Positions 45,011 through 55,462 are shown, counted from the stretch's first letter. The stretch is DNA of 64,000 bases from a virus (IMGVR_UViG_3300020576_005084:1184-65183); one strand, 5' to 3'. Made by a program: numbers and translations. Notes: generated by a model from the sequence alone, not told the origin.

Positions 45011-45294
45011 TTCGCTACGTCTCCCTTGGCTTTCATCCACAGTGCGCCGCCGGTAGTGGTCAGAAGCACACCACCGCCTGCGGCCCATGCCGCCAGCGCG
45101 GTTCCGTAGGCTGTCATGTCAGCGCTGTGGTCCGGCGTGTAGATGACCTTGTGCACGAGGGCGAAGATGAGGGCGCCCCCACCAACAATGTAAACCAGCA
45201 GAATGGAGAGAAACCCAGCGCGCAGCGGATCCAGCTGCTCGTTGTTGTCGTCCTCACACATCATGTTGAAGATCTGGCGGAAGAAAGATTTCAT
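45007..45294 (-). CDS. Holin-like protein (2 TM segments)
   Basis: 95 aa, two hydrophobic segments, basic C-terminus, first gene of the lysis cassette. Confidence 0.6.
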   Translation of the reverse strand: MKSFFRQIFNMMCEDDNNEQLDPLRAGFLSILLVYIVGGGALIFALVHKVIYTPDHSADMTAYGTALAAWAAGGGVLLTTTGGALWMKAKGDVAK

Positions 45295-47090
45295 TGGGCC
45301 ACCTGCTGTGTCTGGCTTTCGTCGTTCCAGTATTCGTCATCCCAGATCTCATAGGACTTCTGCCCCTCGCGCTTCGCGCGCTTTGGGCCGTAGGTGCTGG
45401 CACCGAAGCCGAGGCCGTCGGCGATCATCACGGCCAAAAACGGCGCAGCGTTAGGATCCTGCAGCGCTTCGTAGCCGGTGCTGGCGCCGATCGGTGTTAC
45501 CAAGCCAAGAGCGGTGTTGGTCCACGTCACCTTGTTACCGGCCATGTCGGTGCCGTTTGCCAGCGCGATCATCTTGCCGAGCAGCGGCGATGCCTTGCCT
45601 TCGATATAATCCTCTATGACGTCGATACGGGTGCGAGATCCGAACTTGCCGGTGCCCAACTCCGAGACGCGGCCGGACGTCGAGCTCTTGCTGGAGCCCA
45701 TGATCAGGCGCGCGGCCAGCGTCACCATGGAGCCCATGCCGCCGGATATGTCGAACCGGGTGTCGCCGATTTTTATCTTTCCGAAGTTTGCCGAGCGCGG
45801 ATCCCACTCGACACTGTCAGGATCCAGCATGCCCGCGATGGCGTAAACCAAGGCCATGGTACCGACGATGCGCGCCAGATTCATCGCAGCCTGACGGCGC
45901 ACGAAGTTGCGCGCGGGGCCCTTCTCGATGCCGAAGCCCAGCGTGTGCCCCGTGAGTGTGTCCCAGTTGGACTTCAGGAAGCGCAACGAGAAGAACGCGG
46001 CGTTGACCCAGTCTGCGGGCCTGTCGCCAACCAAGGCTTTCACGCTGCCGCGGCCGGTCATGGAGTTGATCAGATCCCCGATGCCTTCTGCCGCACCACC
46101 GGGCGCGGACAAGTCGACGCCAGCGGCCTCGGCTTTAGGAATCAGGCGATCGGCGATGTCGGCGCGGAAGCGCAGCGAGCCACCAACAAAAGCCGATTCC
46201 GACATTTTGTAGACGCGTCCAAAAACCGGAATTTTCTCCGGCAAGGCGGTGGGGAAAGCCTCTTCGAACTGCTGCCCGAGGGCGAGCTTCATGTTGTCGT
46301 ATTTGCCCATCATCGCGTTGGGCCGGGAGTAGATGTCGGCTTTGAGTGCAGAGATTGGATCGCCACCAACAGCCACACTGGCCATGTCGCTCCACGATTT
46401 CACAAAACCCTTGGCCCAGATATCGGGATGGTTGATCAGTGTCCTGAGACCCTGACGGCCGAAGAAGCTGTTGTCGAGCGATGCGACGACACCCTTGACG
46501 GAGTTGGCGGCGTCGAGAAGCGCGCGGCCGTTGGGTTGCGTCAGCCACTCCTTGAAGTTCTTGGCGTTTGCATCGCGCATCAGCACACCAACATAGTCCT
46601 GATATGCGACGAGCGCGGTGCCGTAGGCCAGCCGATCGGTCTCGCTGGTCCACTCCTGTGTATCCGCGTTCCACTTTTCCTTGAGCGCGGAGATGTTCTT
46701 GGCGCCGGTCGAGATGGTCTTGGCCTCGTCGAAGGTCACGGACGCACCGAACTTCTTGGCGGCCAGATCCGCAAGGAAGGCCTTCTCTTCGGCGGGCTCG
46801 AGCACGTTCTCCAGCTTCTTCACCTTCTCGATGAAGTCCTTGCGGGTCTTCGGCGACAGACCGGACATGTCCGTGGCCCACCGCTGCAGGCCCGCGATCT
46901 GGTCCTTCAGGAGCAGCTTGCTTTCGAACGCGGCGTTCACACCCTCGGCGTTGGCCGGTCCTACGATCTTGGCGAAGTAGGCACGGCGATCGGCGCTGGT
47001 CATGTCCATCAGCTTCCCGGGATCGATCGCACCGGACTTCAGTGCGGCGAGAAACTTCTGAGCATCAGGTTTCGGAATGCAATACGACAT
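45291..47090 (-). CDS. Internal virion (ejected) protein
   Basis: 599 aa, helical; C-terminal 'VEWDPRS.NFGKIKIGDTR.D' motif seen at the end of podovirus ejection proteins. Confidence 0.65.
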   Translation of the reverse strand: MSYCIPKPDAQKFLAALKSGAIDPGKLMDMTSADRRAYFAKIVGPANAEGVNAAFESKLLLKDQIAGLQRWATDMSGLSPKTRKDFIEKVKKLENVLEPAEEKAFLADLAAKKFGASVTFDEAKTISTGAKNISALKEKWNADTQEWTSETDRLAYGTALVAYQDYVGVLMRDANAKNFKEWLTQPNGRALLDAANSVKGVVASLDNSFFGRQGLRTLINHPDIWAKGFVKSWSDMASVAVGGDPISALKADIYSRPNAMMGKYDNMKLALGQQFEEAFPTALPEKIPVFGRVYKMSESAFVGGSLRFRADIADRLIPKAEAAGVDLSAPGGAAEGIGDLINSMTGRGSVKALVGDRPADWVNAAFFSLRFLKSNWDTLTGHTLGFGIEKGPARNFVRRQAAMNLARIVGTMALVYAIAGMLDPDSVEWDPRSANFGKIKIGDTRFDISGGMGSMVTLAARLIMGSSKSSTSGRVSELGTGKFGSRTRIDVIEDYIEGKASPLLGKMIALANGTDMAGNKVTWTNTALGLVTPIGASTGYEALQDPNAAPFLAVMIADGLGFGASTYGPKRAKREGQKSYEIWDDEYWNDESQTQQVAQ

Positions 47091-47560
47091 TAGAATTGCG
47101 CCCTCAGATATGCGACCAGCTTTTCAAGCAGCTTTGCGTTGTCATCCGCCAAACCAAGAATAGTATTGCAGTGCGAACATATCCAACCACGAAAAAGACC
47201 AGTCAAGTGGCAGTGATCGAAACATATCCTTCGTGCCTGCCCACACACTTCGCAATTTTTGGGTTTTGGTCGGCCTGCTTCTTTTAGCTGGCGCGCTGCA
47301 TATTTTTCCACCTGCCTTCTGCGTTTCTCTTCGTAAGGAATTTTACCTTTTTTCTTGTTGGCCTCTGACAGCTTCCTTCTGTGCTCCGCAGTTTTAACTC
47401 TGCCTTTTCCTGCAGCTGAAATTTTTGCACGGTGTTCTGGCGTTTTTACAACCATACTTAGTTTTGCTCGGTGCTCCGCAGAGTGCTTGCGGCCGGTTAA
47501 AGAAGCACGCATTTTAGCTTTCGCTTCTTCCGACAGCTTATGTCCTTTCACAAAAACCAC
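47090..47560 (-). mobile_element. Free-standing homing endonuclease: NUMOD3 repeats plus an endonuclease VII domain
   Basis: Repeats 'KHSAEHRAKLS', 'KTPEHRAKIS', 'KTAEHRRKLSEA'; 'CEVCG...CFDHCH.TG.FRGW.C..CN..LG'; AT-rich relative to the genome. Confidence 0.85.
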
Positions 47561-47563
47561 AGG

Positions 47564-50500
47564 CTACACCTTGCAAATAAGAGACGCGATGAAATCGTTC
47601 CAGTTGGCCTTCTTGGTCGACTTGGCTGTCGCCCGCGACACACGAAGACCACGCTCTACCGTTTCATTGATCTTGGCCTCCGGGTCAATGCCACGGGCTT
47701 TACCACGGGCTTCGCGGGCCAGACGGATCTGCCGCATGGCCTCGGCCGGGGTATCCTTGAGCCGGTTACGCCACGCGGCCGTCTGCTGGCCTTGGGTGGT
47801 GGCGAGCTCGGATATGGGCGACCGGCTCAGGCGTTCTTGCAGCGCGTAGTCGTTATTGGCGATGGCGGCTTTTTCCAGCTCGATGAACACGAACTGGGGG
47901 TGGACACCCGTCAGCGATTTTGCCTCGAGCATGGCGATTGCCAGTGCCCGCTCAGGATCCTCGGCCACCAGACGTGCGGCGCGATCCAGTTGGGGCTTCT
48001 CCTCCCCGACATCATAGGCTTCGCCGTTTATCGCACGGAAACGGGTCTCACCAGTGCCGTCGATCGGCTGCTGCGCCCGGCGACGGGGCGCGCGATCGGG
48101 GATCGGGGGCAGATCCACAACCGTAGTGCTCGAGGGGCCTGCGTTGTTGCCAAACATGGCGGCGTAAGTGGGATCCTGCCGGATCATCTTCTCACGCAGC
48201 GAAGACGGCACGCGCGGAGAGAAGGACGCGCTTTCTACCGTCTGGAATTTTGACGGGTCGAACGGGCCCCACTTCGCAGCGTTGGGACCGAGCACTTCAC
48301 CCTGCCCATCGGCGAACTGGCTGATAGCGTCCTGCTTCAGCCGTTCGCTGACCGCGTTGGCCTCCTCGGCCGTCAGCGGACGATCGAGCTGCATGGCGAC
48401 TGCGGGCGCACCGGACTTGCCGTAAATGCGACGGGCACGCTCTGCAATGACGCGGGCGCCGGTATCCTCGACAACGGCGCGGGCCTCGTCGACGGTGAAA
48501 GACTGGCCACCGTCCAGACGATCGAGGCGCAGGTTGATGGTCGCGCCTTCCGGCGCGGCGGGATGCAGATAGTCCAGAAGGCGCTCCTGCGCCTCGGCGG
48601 CTTCGTCCCACGAGGGGTACACCGGGGCGCGCTGCAGCTCGGCCGACATCTCCTTGGGGTCGAGCACCATGAGCACAACGTCCGGCTTGCCGCCGTTGAA
48701 CTTCTTGTACAGATCCTTGTCCCAGCCTTCAGGCGCATACTCGTCGTTCCACGACGTGCGTGCGGCCTCGACGAAGCCGAAGCGGTGATAGAACTTCGGA
48801 AGGATGGTGTCGAAGGCGTCAAGCTTCACACCACCAGCGGCGACGGCGACTTCCATCATCGCGCTGCCGCTCTTGTCGGTGGAGAACACCGACACAATGT
48901 CGCCGTCAGGCTTCACCGCCACGCCGCTCTTGCCGTTGTCGGCGAGCATCAGGCGGAAGTTCTTGTAGTCCTCGACCGGGTACACGGCGACGGCCGCGCC
49001 GAAGCGGTTGGCGCTCTTCGCAGCGGTGATCAGGTCGGCGAAGCGGCGGGCGTTGGAATCCGTCTGCTCGAGCTCGAGCACGCGGGCGGGAATGTTGACG
49101 CCTGCAGCGGTGTAGCTTTCACGCAGATCCTTGCCAGCGTTCCACTCCGCGGCATAGGTGACACCGAGCGACTTTAGAAGCCGCCCGCGGCCGCCATCTC
49201 TTCCGCCTCCTCGCGTGTAAGACCGGGATGATCCCGCATCGCCTGCGCGATCGGATCGGAGCTGTCGAGTTGTGTCGAGCCTTGGAGAGAACTGAGCGGC
49301 AGCATACGGCTGGGCGTCTGCCCCGGCTCCGAGGGGTCCACCGGCAAAGTCTTCACCCGGGACAGGCCCCGGAAGAGCTCCCTCTCGGTTTCTGTCGGCG
49401 AAGCGCCGGGCGACGTCGTCGAGACGTGCGCGGTTGACTTCAGGTCTTTCATACCAAGCCTCGTTGCCGCTTGCGGTGACCTTGAATTTCGAGGGCACTA
49501 CGCCGTTGGCGGGTTTTTTGATCTCTTCCAGAAACGCACGGAAGGCCGGGACGCTGAATTCGTAGCGCCCGCCCGAGGGGGTGTCATAGCGGAAAAAGGG
49601 CCGGTTGTCATCATCCCGGCCGTACCGGGCGCCATACTCGTAGGCCCCGTATTCACCCTGTTTTGCGGTCACGTCGGCGATCGCCGACCGGTTGGACTTG
49701 GAGATCAGGGCATCGTCCAGAATGGCCCCCAGCGTGCCGTGGGAGGCTTCCTGCTGGGAGTAGGCGACCCAGCTCTCCCAGTGGTAGCGCCCCACGGAGG
49801 CGTCCTGCGGGCGCCCAGCGGCGGCGTAAATGGACCCGATCTTGGCCTGCAGGCCCCGCTCGATCGCCTCGTAAGCCAGCAGGCCGCGGACGCCGTAGGT
49901 CAGGTTGGCCAGCGGGGTGCCGGTGATCACCTTGCCCTCGGCGTCCTTCTGGCCGTCGTAGATGTTGGTGTCCTTGAACCGGCCGTCGTCCCACAGCTGG
50001 CGCGTCTGGACGCGGTCGATGACCATGACGTCGCTGTGACCGGCAACCAGCAGGGTGAAGGAGACCACCTTGTTGTCGATGCCGACGCCTTCGCCGAACT
50101 TCATGAACTCGCGGCGGATCTGCTGGCCGGTCATGTTCGGATCGCTGAACATCTCGTGCAGGTGCTGCATCCGGGTTTTGCCGGTCTCATCCTTCAGCGC
50201 CATGTTCACGAGGAAGTTGTTGCCGAACGCGTTGAGATTGTGCGTGGCACCGGCACCGGGCTGGCCCGAGCCCTTGGGCGCCACAGAGCGGGCCCACGCC
50301 TCGTACTCGGGCATGTCGTCCTTGGTGAAGTTGCCGTCGGCCGCGCGTTGGATCCACGGCGCGGCGCCATCAAAGGCGTCGATGAAGAGGCTTTCCTGAA
50401 CATATGGTGACACGCCACGCGAGAGGAACGACCAGAGGAAAAGCTTGCCGGTTGTGACCGGCGTCAGCTGGCCGCTTTCATAGGCGGCACGGAATTTCGC

Positions 50501-53500
50501 GGCCTGCTCAAAACCGTGGGTCGCATCTTCAATCTGGCCCGCGGACAGGGCAGACACCTTGTTGGTGGCCTCCGCGCTGTTGAGATCGCGGATGAAGGCA
50601 TACGGCGGGATCGGCACGTCGCTGCCCCCAAGGGCATACGCCATCATCTCCGACCACGCCTCCGGGGACTTGGTCGGGTTCTTGAACTTCGACAGGACGT
50701 CGTCGAGATTTTCGAGCTGCTTGCCAGCGTTGCCATTGGTGGTCGTCTGGGTCAGCAGCGTCTGCGGCTCGCCCTTGTTGTTGAGCGCGAACTTCGGCGG
50801 ATTGAGAACGCGGACACGCAGCGACGGTGCGAAGCCGTGCACGTTCTTGTCGGCGACATCCTTGCCGGGCTTGGAGATCTTGATCTTGGGGCTGAACTTC
50901 GGCTGGCCACGCATGACTTCAGCGCGCATTTGCGGCGTGATGTCGAGCGAGTGGACGGGTGTGTTGCCTGTGTTTTTCGCCTTGTTTTCAGGATCGTTGA
51001 TGTATTCCTGTGTCAGAACACGGCGCTCGGCCTGCGATGTGTTGTTCCACGTCTCGTCCGACATGTCGTGGTATTGCGCGACATCTTCGGGTTGAGCTGC
51101 GGCATCGCGCAAGGTCGTGCCCGCTGTCGGCACCACGCCGTCTTCGACCTTGGCGGCCCACTTCTTGACGTACTTGTCGACAAACGCGGGCAGGATCTTG
51201 TCGTAGAACCCGCGCATGCCGGAGCCGCCGACCTTCAGGCCGTCGCCATCGACGCGACCTTCGCTCTTTTTCGACTGCACGATCCCGTCGGCGATGTCCT
51301 TGCCGACAACGTCAGGGATCTCTTCTGCCGGAATCGTCTTTCCGTAAATCACGTCACCGTCGTGATCGTAGACATCGAGATGATACTTGCCGGTCGCGGT
51401 CTTGTACCAGTCAATGTATTCAACCTTCTGGCTCAGGTCATAGCGATCGGCGTTGGTGTCGCCGGTATCCCACGTCACACGGTCATAGCCGTTCTCGACG
51501 GCATAGCGCAGGGCCCGCTTGAAGGCGAGCTCGTGCCATGTGGTCTTGAACGGGGCGTCTGGCACGGCGCTGCGGGCCTTGCGCAAGGCTTCGACAGCGT
51601 CGTTGTGCTTCTTGATAGCCGCCAGCATCTCAGGATCGCTGTCGATCGCGTTTACGCGACTGAGAGCCTCCATGGCTTCAGGGCTGGCGTCGTCATAGAT
51701 TTCACGTTTGCTGGTGTACTTGCCGCCCGTTGCTTCGGCGAACTTCTTCTCGCGCAAAGCATACATCTCGTCGGTGGCTTTTTTGCTGGCTTCAACCAGC
51801 GCAGGCACCTTGGAAGCATCGCCGTATCCGTTCTTGCGGCCGATCTGGTGCCAGTCGCTCTGGATCTCGGCGATGTGCAGGATCTTCTCGCCGTTCGGCC
51901 CGGTGCGGGTATCGAAACGGATGTGGGCAAGGACATTGGATTCGGCCCAATGCTTTCCTTTGAAATTTCCAGCAGCAGATCCGATCGGAGAATTCTTCGC
52001 TGCGCGGGCAATAGCATCCTGCGCGGTGCGTGCGGATTCCCGCGGCACACCAAGAATCCAACGCTTGTTTGCATCGCGCACTTCCCAAATCGGGCCACTG
52101 GCAGGATCGCCTTCAGCCTCTTTCGCTGTCCACCCTGTGGTGTCGCGGGGAATCGCAGGAAGCGTGAGCAGGAGCTCGTGGTAGTCCTTGCCGCCGGGCA
52201 GCGAGTATTCGGCGAACTTCGTCGGGTTGTCGCTGTTCGCAATGCGCTCCAGCTCGACCATGCGATCGTAAGCCGCCTGCGGCATGTCTTCCATTTGCGC
52301 GCGGTACTGCGCGCGGAGTTCGTCGTATTCCGCCTCTTCCGCAGGGCCGATGACGCCGCCCTTCATCACTTCTTCGATCTTTACCGAGCCGACTTCCAGC
52401 TGCTCGAGCACCTCGGCCTTGGTCACCGGGCGCGTCTGGGCACCCAGCCACTTGTCGATGCCAGTGGTCTTGATCTCCTCGGCCTTGATGCCGGGCATGT
52501 TCTTGATGGTCGCCAGCCACTGGCCGGGAGGTGCCTTGTCGAACTTCACGCTGTCGACGGCACGCTCCAGCGCAGAGAAGAACACCGGGCCTTTCTCTTC
52601 GACCTTGGGGCTGAACTGCGGCTTGCCGCCAGTATCCTGCGCCATCTGGTTGGCGACAAAACGGTCGGCGTCGGTCGGGTTGCCGGTCTCGGCTTCGCGC
52701 GGCGTGGGCTTGCCGATCCGCACAGGCTCGCCGGAGGCGGGCTTCTTGGCGGCGGGCTCTTCGGTCTTTTCCTTCGTGACCTCGGCAGCCTTGGCCATGC
52801 GCGCATGTGCTTCGACCATCTTGGCCCGCACAACGGCCATGTCCTCGTTGTCGGTCTTGGGGTTGACCCGGTCCTCGATCGCGGCGCGAATCTTCGCGAG
52901 ACGATCCCGAGCGGCCTTGGTCAGGTACTTCTCACCGCCGCGCACCTTGGCGACGATCGCCTTCTCTTCGGCGCGCAGGTGGGCGACTTGGGGGCTCTTC
53001 TCCGCATCGCTGCGGCGTTTGGTGTCCAGCTCGCCCAGCCAGCGCTTGTAGACCTCGGCCTGCTGCTTGGCCTCGGCATAGCCTTCGCGCGGCTTGGGGC
53101 CAGCGCGTGTGGGGTTGGCCTCCTTGCCGACCATCGCCTCGGTGACGACGTTCTCGGCGGTCGGCGCCTTGTCGGACAGGCCTTCCGTCTCGCCGATCTT
53201 GGCGGCGTGCATCTTCGCGATGGTGTCGTGGATCTGGTCGAGGTTGGTCACCCACTTGTCGGTCTCGAACATGCGGGCAGGCTTGAAGAACTTCTGCAGC
53301 GTGTTGAAGCTCTCGCGCAGGCTGGTCATCAGCTTGCCCAGAACGTCGGTGGCGACGTTCTTGCCGTAGCGTTCCTCGACGGCACCAATGACCTTCTCGA
53401 CGAAGCCGGTGAACCGCGGCGCATCGCCGATCATGTCCTTGCCAAGCTCGTTGTACAGGTGGTCCAGCACGGCGTCAGCATGCGCGGCCTGCCCTTCCGG

Positions 53501-55462
53501 TGTGGAGGGGAAAGAAGCGCGGCTGGGCGCAGTTTCGGAGTGCAGCTCGAGGGCGAGGCGAGCATCGCTGGTCAGGCCTTCAGCCAGCTGCTGCTTCAGC
53601 ATCTGGTTCAGGTTGCTGCCGTCCGGCAGCTTCACACCTTCGAAGGTGTGGCCGAGCTCGTGCATCGATATCTGCGCAACAGCACGCGTCGGGTTGCTGG
53701 AGATGAAGACGGTGTTCGGCTGGCGCTCGTCAACCACACCGTCGAAGCCCTTTTCTCCGATGTCTTTAACAAAGACGACATCCACACCGTACTTCGCAAA
53801 ATGTTCGCGAGCTGCATTGGCGAATTCCGGCGTGACGGCACCAGCATCCGGTTTTGCCGGATCCGGTTCCCATGCTTCCAGCGGCTCGGCGATGGCATCA
53901 CGGTTGTTGGCGTACAGCTGGTCGACAGCGGCCTGCCGCTTCGACCGCAGGTTGGGCAGATCCTGATCGAGAGACTTCTTGGTCTCGTCGATCATCTGGT
54001 CGAGCGATGCACGAGGGGCGCCAGTCGGCGAAGCGACGGCCGCCTCGGCCGCAGCGGCGATCGCAGTGTCGACATCCGGCGCAGCGAGGACGCTGTCGAC
54101 CGAGACCTTCTGCTGCGGTGTGATGGTGTCGGCCGGGGGAGCCGCGGTCGTTGTATCGATCAGAGGCGTGCCGGTGTTGGGCGGGGGCGGCGCAGCGGCA
54201 TCGGGCGGTGGCGGTGCGGCCGTATCCGGTGCAGCCGTGGGCTCCTTGCCCGGGGCGAAGTCACCCAGACCACCGGACAACTGGTTGTCGCGGTGCTGGA
54301 TGTAGGCATCGACCTTGCTGTTGTCGGCCGGAGCTTCAGCAGCAGGTGTCAGGGCTTCTGTAATCCCTTTTGCGCCGCCACCCATAATGCCGCCGGTAAG
54401 GCCACCAATGATGGCGCTCAGCGCGGCACTCTTGGCGGTCTCGGCAGTGAAAAACGGTTTGTCGGATGCCGCGCTGACAGCAGCGCTGGAAATAAGATCC
54501 TGCGCACCTTCTGTGCCCGCTTCAATTACACCAGACTCCCCGGTCTCGGCCAATATACGCTTCACAACACCACGGACAGCTTCGGCTTTCGCTTCCTTCG
54601 TACCAAGGCCGCCAACCCAACGTGTTGGGTTGATGGTATCGAGCGCGGTGATCGGGATGGCGGCGCCGAAAGCCCATTTCGCGGCCTGTTCTTTCGGAAC
54701 ACCTGCGGCTTTCAACTGGCCGTAGACGTCGCCGTAATTCAAAACATATGAGGGGGCGGCGGCGCCAAAGGCCGCGCCGCCCGGCCCCGCGACGGCTCCA
54801 CCACCGAGAGCACCAACAATGGATGCAGCAGAAGAACCAATCGCGCCACCAACACCTTCACCAACCCACGTCAGTGTTTTTCCAAGATCGAAATTCTTTA
54901 GGCTGGGTTCCTCGGCGCGAAGGGCAAAATCCTTCGGCGACTTGTTCGCAAGCTCGAGCACTTGTTTGGATGCATCGCGCAACATCTCGTCGATGTGTGG
55001 TGCCTTGTCCTGCATCTTCCGCATGGACTCGGTGACCGCACCCATTCCCGTCTCGGAATCGACACGATCGGTGTTGTTTGGTACGAGGAACGAAAACCCC
55101 TCAAGTGTTTCAGCTGTTGCCCGCGGATTGTCGCCCATTAGTTTTGTCACCAAACCACGGGTCAGCGCCCAGTGGTCAGATGGCTTCTCTGGTGCGTCCG
55201 AGGGGGCTTCACCCTTTATACTGTTCAATACGTCGTTATTGGGCAGGCCGCTTTTCACCGGGCCGGTATCACGCATCATGGAGTTGATCAGGCCACCCTT
55301 TAAAGGGTCCGGGGCCTTGGCCAAGAAATCAACAATCTCGCTATCGTCATAACCAGACTTGCGCGCAGCCGCAGTGTCGAACTCCTTCATCGGTGCGAGG
55401 AAGTCGGCAATCTCGCTGTCGGAATAACCAGCCTTGCGTGCGCCTGCTACATCAAACGGCAT
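47564..55462 (-). CDS. Large polyvalent internal virion protein (2632 aa)
   Basis: N-terminal 'MPFDV.GARKAGYSD.EIA.FL'; HELGH motif at aa 601; FSP[KR] linkers starting near aa 949, 1522, 2057 and 2413; HhH-GPD-like and GNAT-like segments. Confidence 0.85.
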   Translation of the reverse strand: MPFDVAGARKAGYSDSEIADFLAPMKEFDTAAARKSGYDDSEIVDFLAKAPDPLKGGLINSMMRDTGPVKSGLPNNDVLNSIKGEAPSDAPEKPSDHWALTRGLVTKLMGDNPRATAETLEGFSFLVPNNTDRVDSETGMGAVTESMRKMQDKAPHIDEMLRDASKQVLELANKSPKDFALRAEEPSLKNFDLGKTLTWVGEGVGGAIGSSAASIVGALGGGAVAGPGGAAFGAAAPSYVLNYGDVYGQLKAAGVPKEQAAKWAFGAAIPITALDTINPTRWVGGLGTKEAKAEAVRGVVKRILAETGESGVIEAGTEGAQDLISSAAVSAASDKPFFTAETAKSAALSAIIGGLTGGIMGGGAKGITEALTPAAEAPADNSKVDAYIQHRDNQLSGGLGDFAPGKEPTAAPDTAAPPPPDAAAPPPPNTGTPLIDTTTAAPPADTITPQQKVSVDSVLAAPDVDTAIAAAAEAAVASPTGAPRASLDQMIDETKKSLDQDLPNLRSKRQAAVDQLYANNRDAIAEPLEAWEPDPAKPDAGAVTPEFANAAREHFAKYGVDVVFVKDIGEKGFDGVVDERQPNTVFISSNPTRAVAQISMHELGHTFEGVKLPDGSNLNQMLKQQLAEGLTSDARLALELHSETAPSRASFPSTPEGQAAHADAVLDHLYNELGKDMIGDAPRFTGFVEKVIGAVEERYGKNVATDVLGKLMTSLRESFNTLQKFFKPARMFETDKWVTNLDQIHDTIAKMHAAKIGETEGLSDKAPTAENVVTEAMVGKEANPTRAGPKPREGYAEAKQQAEVYKRWLGELDTKRRSDAEKSPQVAHLRAEEKAIVAKVRGGEKYLTKAARDRLAKIRAAIEDRVNPKTDNEDMAVVRAKMVEAHARMAKAAEVTKEKTEEPAAKKPASGEPVRIGKPTPREAETGNPTDADRFVANQMAQDTGGKPQFSPKVEEKGPVFFSALERAVDSVKFDKAPPGQWLATIKNMPGIKAEEIKTTGIDKWLGAQTRPVTKAEVLEQLEVGSVKIEEVMKGGVIGPAEEAEYDELRAQYRAQMEDMPQAAYDRMVELERIANSDNPTKFAEYSLPGGKDYHELLLTLPAIPRDTTGWTAKEAEGDPASGPIWEVRDANKRWILGVPRESARTAQDAIARAAKNSPIGSAAGNFKGKHWAESNVLAHIRFDTRTGPNGEKILHIAEIQSDWHQIGRKNGYGDASKVPALVEASKKATDEMYALREKKFAEATGGKYTSKREIYDDASPEAMEALSRVNAIDSDPEMLAAIKKHNDAVEALRKARSAVPDAPFKTTWHELAFKRALRYAVENGYDRVTWDTGDTNADRYDLSQKVEYIDWYKTATGKYHLDVYDHDGDVIYGKTIPAEEIPDVVGKDIADGIVQSKKSEGRVDGDGLKVGGSGMRGFYDKILPAFVDKYVKKWAAKVEDGVVPTAGTTLRDAAAQPEDVAQYHDMSDETWNNTSQAERRVLTQEYINDPENKAKNTGNTPVHSLDITPQMRAEVMRGQPKFSPKIKISKPGKDVADKNVHGFAPSLRVRVLNPPKFALNNKGEPQTLLTQTTTNGNAGKQLENLDDVLSKFKNPTKSPEAWSEMMAYALGGSDVPIPPYAFIRDLNSAEATNKVSALSAGQIEDATHGFEQAAKFRAAYESGQLTPVTTGKLFLWSFLSRGVSPYVQESLFIDAFDGAAPWIQRAADGNFTKDDMPEYEAWARSVAPKGSGQPGAGATHNLNAFGNNFLVNMALKDETGKTRMQHLHEMFSDPNMTGQQIRREFMKFGEGVGIDNKVVSFTLLVAGHSDVMVIDRVQTRQLWDDGRFKDTNIYDGQKDAEGKVITGTPLANLTYGVRGLLAYEAIERGLQAKIGSIYAAAGRPQDASVGRYHWESWVAYSQQEASHGTLGAILDDALISKSNRSAIADVTAKQGEYGAYEYGARYGRDDDNRPFFRYDTPSGGRYEFSVPAFRAFLEEIKKPANGVVPSKFKVTASGNEAWYERPEVNRARLDDVARRFADRNREGALPGPVPGEDFAGGPLGAGADAQPYAAAQFSPRLDTTRQLRSDRAGDAGSSRSYTRGGGRDGGRGRLLKSLGVTYAAEWNAGKDLRESYTAAGVNIPARVLELEQTDSNARRFADLITAAKSANRFGAAVAVYPVEDYKNFRLMLADNGKSGVAVKPDGDIVSVFSTDKSGSAMMEVAVAAGGVKLDAFDTILPKFYHRFGFVEAARTSWNDEYAPEGWDKDLYKKFNGGKPDVVLMVLDPKEMSAELQRAPVYPSWDEAAEAQERLLDYLHPAAPEGATINLRLDRLDGGQSFTVDEARAVVEDTGARVIAERARRIYGKSGAPAVAMQLDRPLTAEEANAVSERLKQDAISQFADGQGEVLGPNAAKWGPFDPSKFQTVESASFSPRVPSSLREKMIRQDPTYAAMFGNNAGPSSTTVVDLPPIPDRAPRRRAQQPIDGTGETRFRAINGEAYDVGEEKPQLDRAARLVAEDPERALAIAMLEAKSLTGVHPQFVFIELEKAAIANNDYALQERLSRSPISELATTQGQQTAAWRNRLKDTPAEAMRQIRLAREARGKARGIDPEAKINETVERGLRVSRATAKSTKKANWNDFIASLICKV

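Follow-up and report, generated by a model that had tools for sequence, protein, structure and literature searches.

FSP[KR] joints between the exchangeable cassettes of a giant phage protein as probable cutting sites of its own zincin-like domain

What does a short peptide, FSP[KR], do at the domain borders of a giant phage protein? We considered this question for P0001, a protein of 2,632 amino acids (aa) from an uncultured short-tailed phage, encoded in IMGVR_UViG_3300020576_005084:1184-65183 (hereafter the window, i.e., the whole stretch of 64,000 nucleotides analyzed). The window covers nearly all of a 65,183-bp IMG/VR virus record that has direct terminal repeats and is rated complete. 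P0001 contains exactly four FSP[KR] peptides (joints 1 to 4, Table 1) and one HExxH motif, the latter within a zincin-like domain. The joints are the points where relatives swap, reorder or drop whole cassettes, and they are probably also the cutting sites of the protein's own HExxH domain. Taking all observations together, we lean towards P0001 being a virion-packed ejection protein of the polyvalent class, the zinc-protease-like domain of which would cut at FSP[KR] and so free its cargo. The proteolysis, like the scissile bond, the packaging, the ejection and the targets of the cassettes, is something that we infer.

The motif is far more frequent in P0001 than expected from the protein's own composition (0.036 FSP[KR] and 0.033 HExxH expected; Poisson probability of four FSP[KR] ~7e-8). 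Six-frame translation of all 64 kb gave just eight FSP[KR], four of them in the giant open reading frame. The other four fell in short open frames (31–145 codons), three of which run antisense to the local gene direction, and the motif was found in no other real gene of the window. An earlier reading of this DNA by a model from the sequence alone (the original prediction) had listed the four motifs, each with its preceding residue, and an HELGH; our count recovered all of them at exactly the same coordinates, and HELGH proved to be the sole HExxH in P0001. The segments that had been sized at ~570, 530 and 350 aa plus a tail correspond to inter-motif distances of 569, 531, 352 and 215 aa.

Two AlphaFold2 models built with homologue alignments (aa 470–1560, mean predicted local distance difference test [pLDDT] score 78.0; aa 1500–2632, mean pLDDT 79.5) divide P0001 into at least six folded units: the HExxH domain, a helical hairpin, a GNAT-like cassette (A), an HhH-GPD cassette (B), a GNAT plus alpha/beta cassette (C) and a C-terminal domain (D). 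All four joints have pLDDT values below 50–60 and lie between confidently modeled domains. Since the motifs are placed in low-confidence linkers between units, the possibility raised in the original prediction that they might fall inside folded domains was not borne out.

Across homologues, the distribution of FSP[KR] follows that of the HExxH domain. A first search returned 119 giant homologues, most of which share just cassette B with P0001 and many of which carry polyvalent-protein Pfam domains; among these giants, FSP[KR] was confined to the 16 proteins, counting the query, in which the HExxH region is matched as well. The HExxH domain alone, used as query against 1.84 billion representative proteins, gave just 63 clusters, with the domain always near aa 330–750 of giant proteins; it is a separate, rare family. 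All 42 matches longer than 1,500 aa with E ≤ 1e-17 carried one to six FSP[KR] (108 in total versus ~1 expected, at 0.02–0.04 per protein), and the weak matches from the same search carried none. The first FSP[KR] was C-terminal of HExxH in 52 of 52 cases. A logo of 132 distinct sites was strictly F-S-P-[KR], with mild preferences only in the flanks.

The borders of the shared cassettes were compared between proteins with and without the HExxH domain by scoring [FY]SP[KR] within 45 aa of each border. At the N side of cassette A, the motif was present in 17/17 proteins with the domain and 0/16 without it, and at the C side in 18/18 and 0/11, respectively. Values for cassette B were 5/5 with and 0/84 without the domain at the N side, and 5/5 and 0/83 at the C side. 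In proteins without the HExxH domain, cassette A ends in sequences such as ...GQPLFQR, ...GFPMFAR and ...GFPLFQG; the Phe is therefore the cassette end's own, and SP[KR] the addition of the HExxH clade. A few joints other than the one before D read YSP[KR]. P0043, which is without the HExxH domain, has a C terminus reading exactly ...ARLFSPR (aa 2060–2063 of 2063 for the motif), and this terminal FSPR may mean that the gene call is cut short or that translation really stops just behind a joint.

Comparison of cassette content across homologues placed the exchange exactly at the motif, where BLAST segment ends also coincide. Cassettes A and B stand in reverse order in P0010, and cassette A is flanked by motifs in seven further proteins. 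Other members hold ART-PolyVal, LPD38, DUF7178, LPD3 or a Sno-type helicase between joints (among relatives with the same frame, ART-PolyVal in 9/16 and LPD38 in 4/16, and also LPD3). P0122 (L013:8001-11195; 1,064 aa) occupies the giant gene's position in the virion module as a complete gene, and comprises the N-terminal repeat of the query, the HExxH domain, the hairpin, one FSPR and D, with no cassette. Joint-flanked cassettes and this cassette-less protein together imply that a fixed frame holding n cassettes has n+1 joints.

Codon usage indicates the level at which the joints are maintained. Over the window and seven related loci, the motif Ser is encoded 17 times by TCN and four times by AGY, and the Arg by CGC, CGG, CGA or AGG; the use of both TCN and AGY argues that it is the peptide, rather than the underlying DNA, that is under selection. 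A strict peptide under purifying selection, placed in disordered joints, downstream of one domain family and found only with it, is most simply accounted for as the site of a cognate protease. Thus, of the two roles that the original prediction offered for the linkers, that of cassette-exchange points stood as an observation, and that of cleavage sites for the HExxH domain gained strong comparative support from the strict co-occurrence, which makes it probable.

The predicted structure of the HExxH domain is consistent with such a role. HELGH lies within a predicted helix (aa 591–606) preceded by strands, and E672 lies within a later helix (aa 655–683) together with D676, which is invariant too. 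The order of these modeled elements in aa 514–770 fits a zincin core, which has a helix at the N terminus, a three-stranded sheet and two helices at the C terminus; the layout is strands, an HExxH helix and a later ligand helix (PMC5512222), the third ligand in the gluzincin type being a Glu. In a language-model atlas, the domain was nearest to LPD23 clusters (score 0.95), a lead only.

Cutting of phage and plasmid polyvalent giants into enzymes by zincin peptidases has been proposed since 2017 (Iyer, Burroughs, Anand, de Souza and Aravind, PMC5512222). No cleavage site was known before, which made the proposal hard to test. P0001 is like the phage-type polyvalent proteins of that paper in being a giant multi-domain protein encoded among virion genes, with a zincin-like HExxH hub and GNAT enzymatic cassettes, and a viral fold library gave matches to "large polyvalent protein associated domain" proteins. 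Polyvalent proteins combine two to 15 unrelated domains, several of them enzymatic, and the six or more folded units of P0001 agree with this. By architecture and homologues, P0001 can be classed, provisionally, as a phage-type polyvalent protein. The premise of the original prediction that such proteins carry zincin peptidases agrees with PMC5512222, but its accompanying premise of short linker motifs found no confirmation there: no cleavage or linker motif is named ("linker," "interdomain" and "processing site" occur zero times). Nor has a joint motif been described in the other literature that could be consulted. Glycosylase is never mentioned there, and the HhH-GPD cassette was present in ~90/120 giants of the first search (query included). 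The fixed frame with n+1 joints and its cassette-less base form are new detail relative to that paper.

A closer parallel in a characterized virion is the polyvalent protein gp47 of phi24B (2,811 aa), which mass spectrometry revealed in virions but which was not seen in the reconstruction, and for which a role as an ejection protein was proposed (bioRxiv 10.64898/2026.04.10.717836). This 933W-type protein is like P0001 in its size (~2,800 aa), its podovirus background with a hub/nozzle-type tail, and its polyvalent plus metallopeptidase domains. Unlike P0001, it has LPD5, LPD1, LPD38 and MuF_C, and no joint motif or processing has been reported for it. Likenesses to cyanophage A4 gp26–29 (PMC12002296) comprise gene position, membrane-like segments and an enzyme domain in an ejection protein. 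P0001 differs from podovirus ejection proteins in being far larger and in carrying exchangeable, cytoplasm-type enzyme cassettes. Viral polyproteins, such as those cut by picornavirus 3C, are made as one product that includes its protease and has a short conserved peptide wherever two domains meet. If self-cleavage is the right reading, P0001 would work alike, although it belongs to a DNA phage, is apparently virion cargo and not replication machinery, bears a putative metalloprotease and not a Cys/Ser-type protease, and has no homology to these polyproteins.

Several results weigh against self-cleavage by a zincin-like domain. Pfam (searched at E ≤ 1) and NCBIfam gave nothing significant on whole P0001, and unlike the polyvalent proteins described in 2017, P0001 matches none of their Pfam models, MPTase and LPD included (no Pfam polyvalent domain). 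Pfam peptidase models, MPTase-PolyVal among them, were not above threshold for any of five HExxH-domain copies at E ≤ 10. PDB searches with the protein, a 16-sequence profile and a five-sequence HExxH-domain profile gave no significant match. Fold searches on the aa 470–1560 model (Foldseek, VIA second look and VIA wide search) returned lists filled by GNAT matches to cassette A and by long-helix matches, in which no solved zincin surfaced. Two of five members showed a sub-threshold eCIS_core match to the HExxH domain (E 0.08). The motif itself is not uniform: the joint that precedes D often has another residue in place of Phe (LSPR, HSPR, NSPR, QSPR) while the core SP[KR] stays invariant, implying a looser recognition rule at that joint. 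In the AlphaFold models, the joints stay at low confidence and none is docked into the HExxH active site. Finally, the co-occurrence of motif and HExxH domain could come from shared descent or host range, given relatives in alphaproteobacterial metagenome-assembled genomes (MAGs).

The most serious alternative, which we regard as unlikely yet well worth weighing, is that the joints are not cut at all. FSP[KR] would then be a beta-turn hinge or docking motif that marks insertion points, and the HExxH domain would cut peptidoglycan cross-links or a host protein during penetration. Such a role would suit the undocked joints as well as P0001 itself, in which Pfam and PHROGs recognized no other wall-degrading domain. 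It also has precedents: cell-wall degradation is what the phi24B authors propose for the gp47 metallopeptidase domain (bioRxiv 10.64898/2026.04.10.717836), and the cyanophage A4 ejection protein gp28 has an M23 peptidase for peptidoglycan (PMC12002296). Moreover, other genes of the module are conserved with the frame too, and one of them could be the motif's true partner. A mere hinge, however, has no need of four strictly fixed residues, and gives no reason why all 84 proteins without the HExxH domain should lack the motif at these cassette borders. That domain is also the only part of the protein present in every motif-bearing relative (the N-terminal part and D are missing from many), and the motifs are never upstream of it.

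Cutting of the joints by a different protease seems improbable. It could be the host's (probably alphaproteobacterial) or the phage's, e.g., a head-maturation protease, and the relatives in alphaproteobacterial MAGs mean that host lineage is confounded with the HExxH clade. Counting against the first option, we know of no host endoprotease with FSP[KR] specificity. As for the second, PHROGs found no head protease between the portal and capsid genes or elsewhere (absence from PHROGs being weak evidence), and P0001 is alone among the real genes of the window in having the motif, though a maturation protease usually trims scaffold, portal or capsid too. A DNA-level recombination signal promoting cassette exchange, with the motif as its by-product, is barely credible and was rejected on codon usage: exchange does take place at the joints, and joints 1 and 2 have in common 12 nucleotides (TTCAGCCCCAAG) and some upstream bases, but in joints 3 and 4 the Ser codon is TCT and the Arg codon AGG or CGC, no single-substitution path between TCN and AGY keeps Ser, and 12 bases are too short for homologous recombination.

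Returning to self-cleavage, the fixed frame would consist of the front part (aa 1–950, with the repeat, two membrane-like segments, the zincin-like domain and the hairpin) and the helical domain D, with GNAT-fold A, HhH-GPD glycosylase/lyase-like B and GNAT plus alpha/beta C as cargo in between. The protein would be built into the head at full length, both constant ends being needed for this; that both are conserved suggests assembly of the uncut protein, with cutting at a later stage. Its own metallopeptidase domain would then cut the FSP[KR] joints, be it still within the capsid or once ejected, and the cassettes, freed as separate enzymes, could act on host DNA, host proteins or small molecules before phage gene expression, while the front part may help to build a conduit through the envelope. 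The broader claim is that a metallopeptidase family not recognized before, acting in cis, reads FSP[KR] as its site code, and that P0001 is a true phage polyprotein in which any enzyme can be plugged in between two joints, to be freed in the capsid or the host; this strikes us as evenly balanced between right and wrong. More speculatively, the cut might fall just before Phe/Tyr, where many zincins whose P1' pocket is hydrophobic cut. Each freed enzyme would in that case start with a bacterial N-degron and be short-lived, so that injected effectors (a DNA glycosylase, for example) would carry their own timer.

The proposed site is concrete and falsifiable, since it consists of four residues, in disordered joints, found only alongside one peptidase-like family; P0122, with its single joint, would be a minimal natural substrate. 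The comparisons also show a route of evolution, namely cassette insertion at the joint of a fixed ejection-protein frame, and they extend the list of likely injected effectors by a glycosylase-like HhH-GPD enzyme and a GNAT-fold domain of an unusual kind. If the cutting is true, frame and joints would amount to a natural means of delivering chosen proteins into bacteria with phage DNA.

Table 1. Features of P0001 and neighboring genes in the window
Feature	Position	Strand	Evidence or remark
Giant gene, 2632 aa (P0001), polyvalent / ejection-type protein	47564..55462	(-)	Open reading frame
N-terminal tandem repeat, aa 5-49, with AR(K)xGYxDxEIxDFLA occurring twice (aa 7-23, 32-48)	55316..55450	(-)	
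Uncharged Gly/Ala-rich hydrophobic stretch, aa 203-241, membrane-segment-like	54740..54856	(-)	
Second uncharged Gly/Ala-rich hydrophobic stretch, aa 345-364	54371..54430	(-)	
HExxH (zincin-like) domain, aa 514-770	53153..53923	(-)	Predicted order: helix, strands, helix bearing HExxH, then a helix that carries the invariant Glu
HELGH, aa 601-605	53648..53662	(-)	No variation at H601, E602 or H605 among 16 relatives
E672, invariant; candidate third zinc ligand in downstream helix	53447..53449	(-)	Sequence and model
Charged long-helix hairpin, aa 784-897, between HExxH domain and joint 1	52772..53113	(-)	
Joint 1, FSPK, aa 950-953	52604..52615	(-)	pLDDT<50 linker
Cassette A, aa 954-1522, large insertions in a core of GNAT fold (HIRFDTR...HIAEIQSDWHQ)	50897..52603	(-)	
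Joint 2, FSPK, aa 1523-1526	50885..50896	(-)	Where model confidence drops behind cassette A
Cassette B, aa 1527-2057, HhH-GPD glycosylase-like, fold core aa 1630-1908	49292..50884	(-)	
Joint 3, FSPR, aa 2058-2061	49280..49291	(-)	End of 37-residue pLDDT<50 linker
Cassette C, aa 2062-2413	48224..49279	(-)	GNAT aa 2114-2270 (phrog_2563) and small alpha/beta unit aa 2285-2399 (phrog_11722)
Joint 4, FSPR, aa 2414-2417	48212..48223	(-)	pLDDT<50 linker
Constant C-terminal domain D, aa 2418-2632, mostly helical	47567..48211	(-)	
Upstream conserved virion-module genes: 708-aa hub, then 457, 426, 128, 346, 193, 222 aa	55462..63752	(-)	Syntenic in related contigs
NUMOD3 + endonuclease VII/HNH homing-type endonuclease, 156 aa, directly after giant gene, before fiber-like gene	47090-47560	(-)	
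Downstream 599-aa protein	45291..47090	(-)	Only N-terminal 139 aa conserved in a relative (fiber-like pattern)

In the front part of P0001 (Table 1), the N-terminal tandem repeat is conserved at the start of distant relatives, P0122 included, and may be a packaging or portal-binding signal. A Pro/Ala-rich spacer lies between the Gly/Ala-rich stretches and the HExxH domain. At the other end, domain D forms the C terminus of at least 12 relatives, the cassette-less form among them.

Cassette A (570 aa) has a GNAT fold into which a long helical hairpin is inserted, and occurs in ~28 of the first 120 giants; matches with 30% identity were found in Dolichospermum phage Dfl-JY45 and Pelagibacter phage HTVC028P. 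The GNAT fold of P0001 is that of the GNAT acyltransferases. Cassette B has the two-lobed helical fold with a helix-hairpin-helix of the HhH-GPD superfamily, and two of its residues, 18 apart, are conserved: K1798 (50069-50071) in 36/41 and D1816 (50015-50017) in 38/41 sequences. Going by the spacing in endonuclease III, these may be the equivalents of the catalytic pair of HhH-GPD enzymes, in which the Asp follows a Gly-rich loop and the Lys serves lyase activity. Compared with Ogg2-type HhH-GPD glycosylases (MjOgg, 3knt; Tm1821, 3n0u), the cassette has 13% identity, ~250 extra residues around the core and a virion-protein context. Searching PHROGs with whole P0001 gave only two unnamed families, both in cassette C.

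The surroundings of the giant gene are those of a phage: genes for a large portal, terminase, major head protein, primase-helicase, exonuclease, DNA polymerase and helicase were recognized in the window, and the 708-aa hub protein resembles P22 gp10-type "stabilization/head-closure" hub proteins of podoviruses. Gene order around the giant gene is kept in five to six related contigs. In T7 (gp14–16) and P22 (gp7, gp20 and gp16), the genes for ejection or internal core proteins come after the tail hub and before the fiber. As the giant gene follows the hub genes and precedes a fiber-like gene, it is at the position of podovirus ejection proteins, and by this positional analogy it may be their counterpart; no sequence similarity of the giant protein to the T7, P22 or cyanophage A4 ejection proteins was found, and its front part has no PHROG or Pfam match.

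An alignment-based search for loci related to the giant protein found seven viral and three genome loci, whereas the single protein as query found none in viral contigs. Relatives of the front part (L010–L012) are in MAGs named Rhodopila and Rhizomicrobium, both Alphaproteobacteria. In the related contig L013, a GIY-YIG/NUMOD3 gene, located a few genes further on, takes the place of the HNH/EndoVII-NUMOD3 gene.

Giants without the HExxH domain of P0001 (P0012–P0120) have a different junction before cassette B, with sequences such as ...KSA.GN.G.FDPNDPNIL.Q, PEIFKQ and PQVLEQA. In these giants, 55 instances of the pattern P-x-[ILVM]-[LF]-x-Q were counted versus 15.7 expected (only 3.5-fold), usually one per protein; the FSP clade has two versus 6.1 expected. 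Most of these giants contain another HExxH domain, further downstream.

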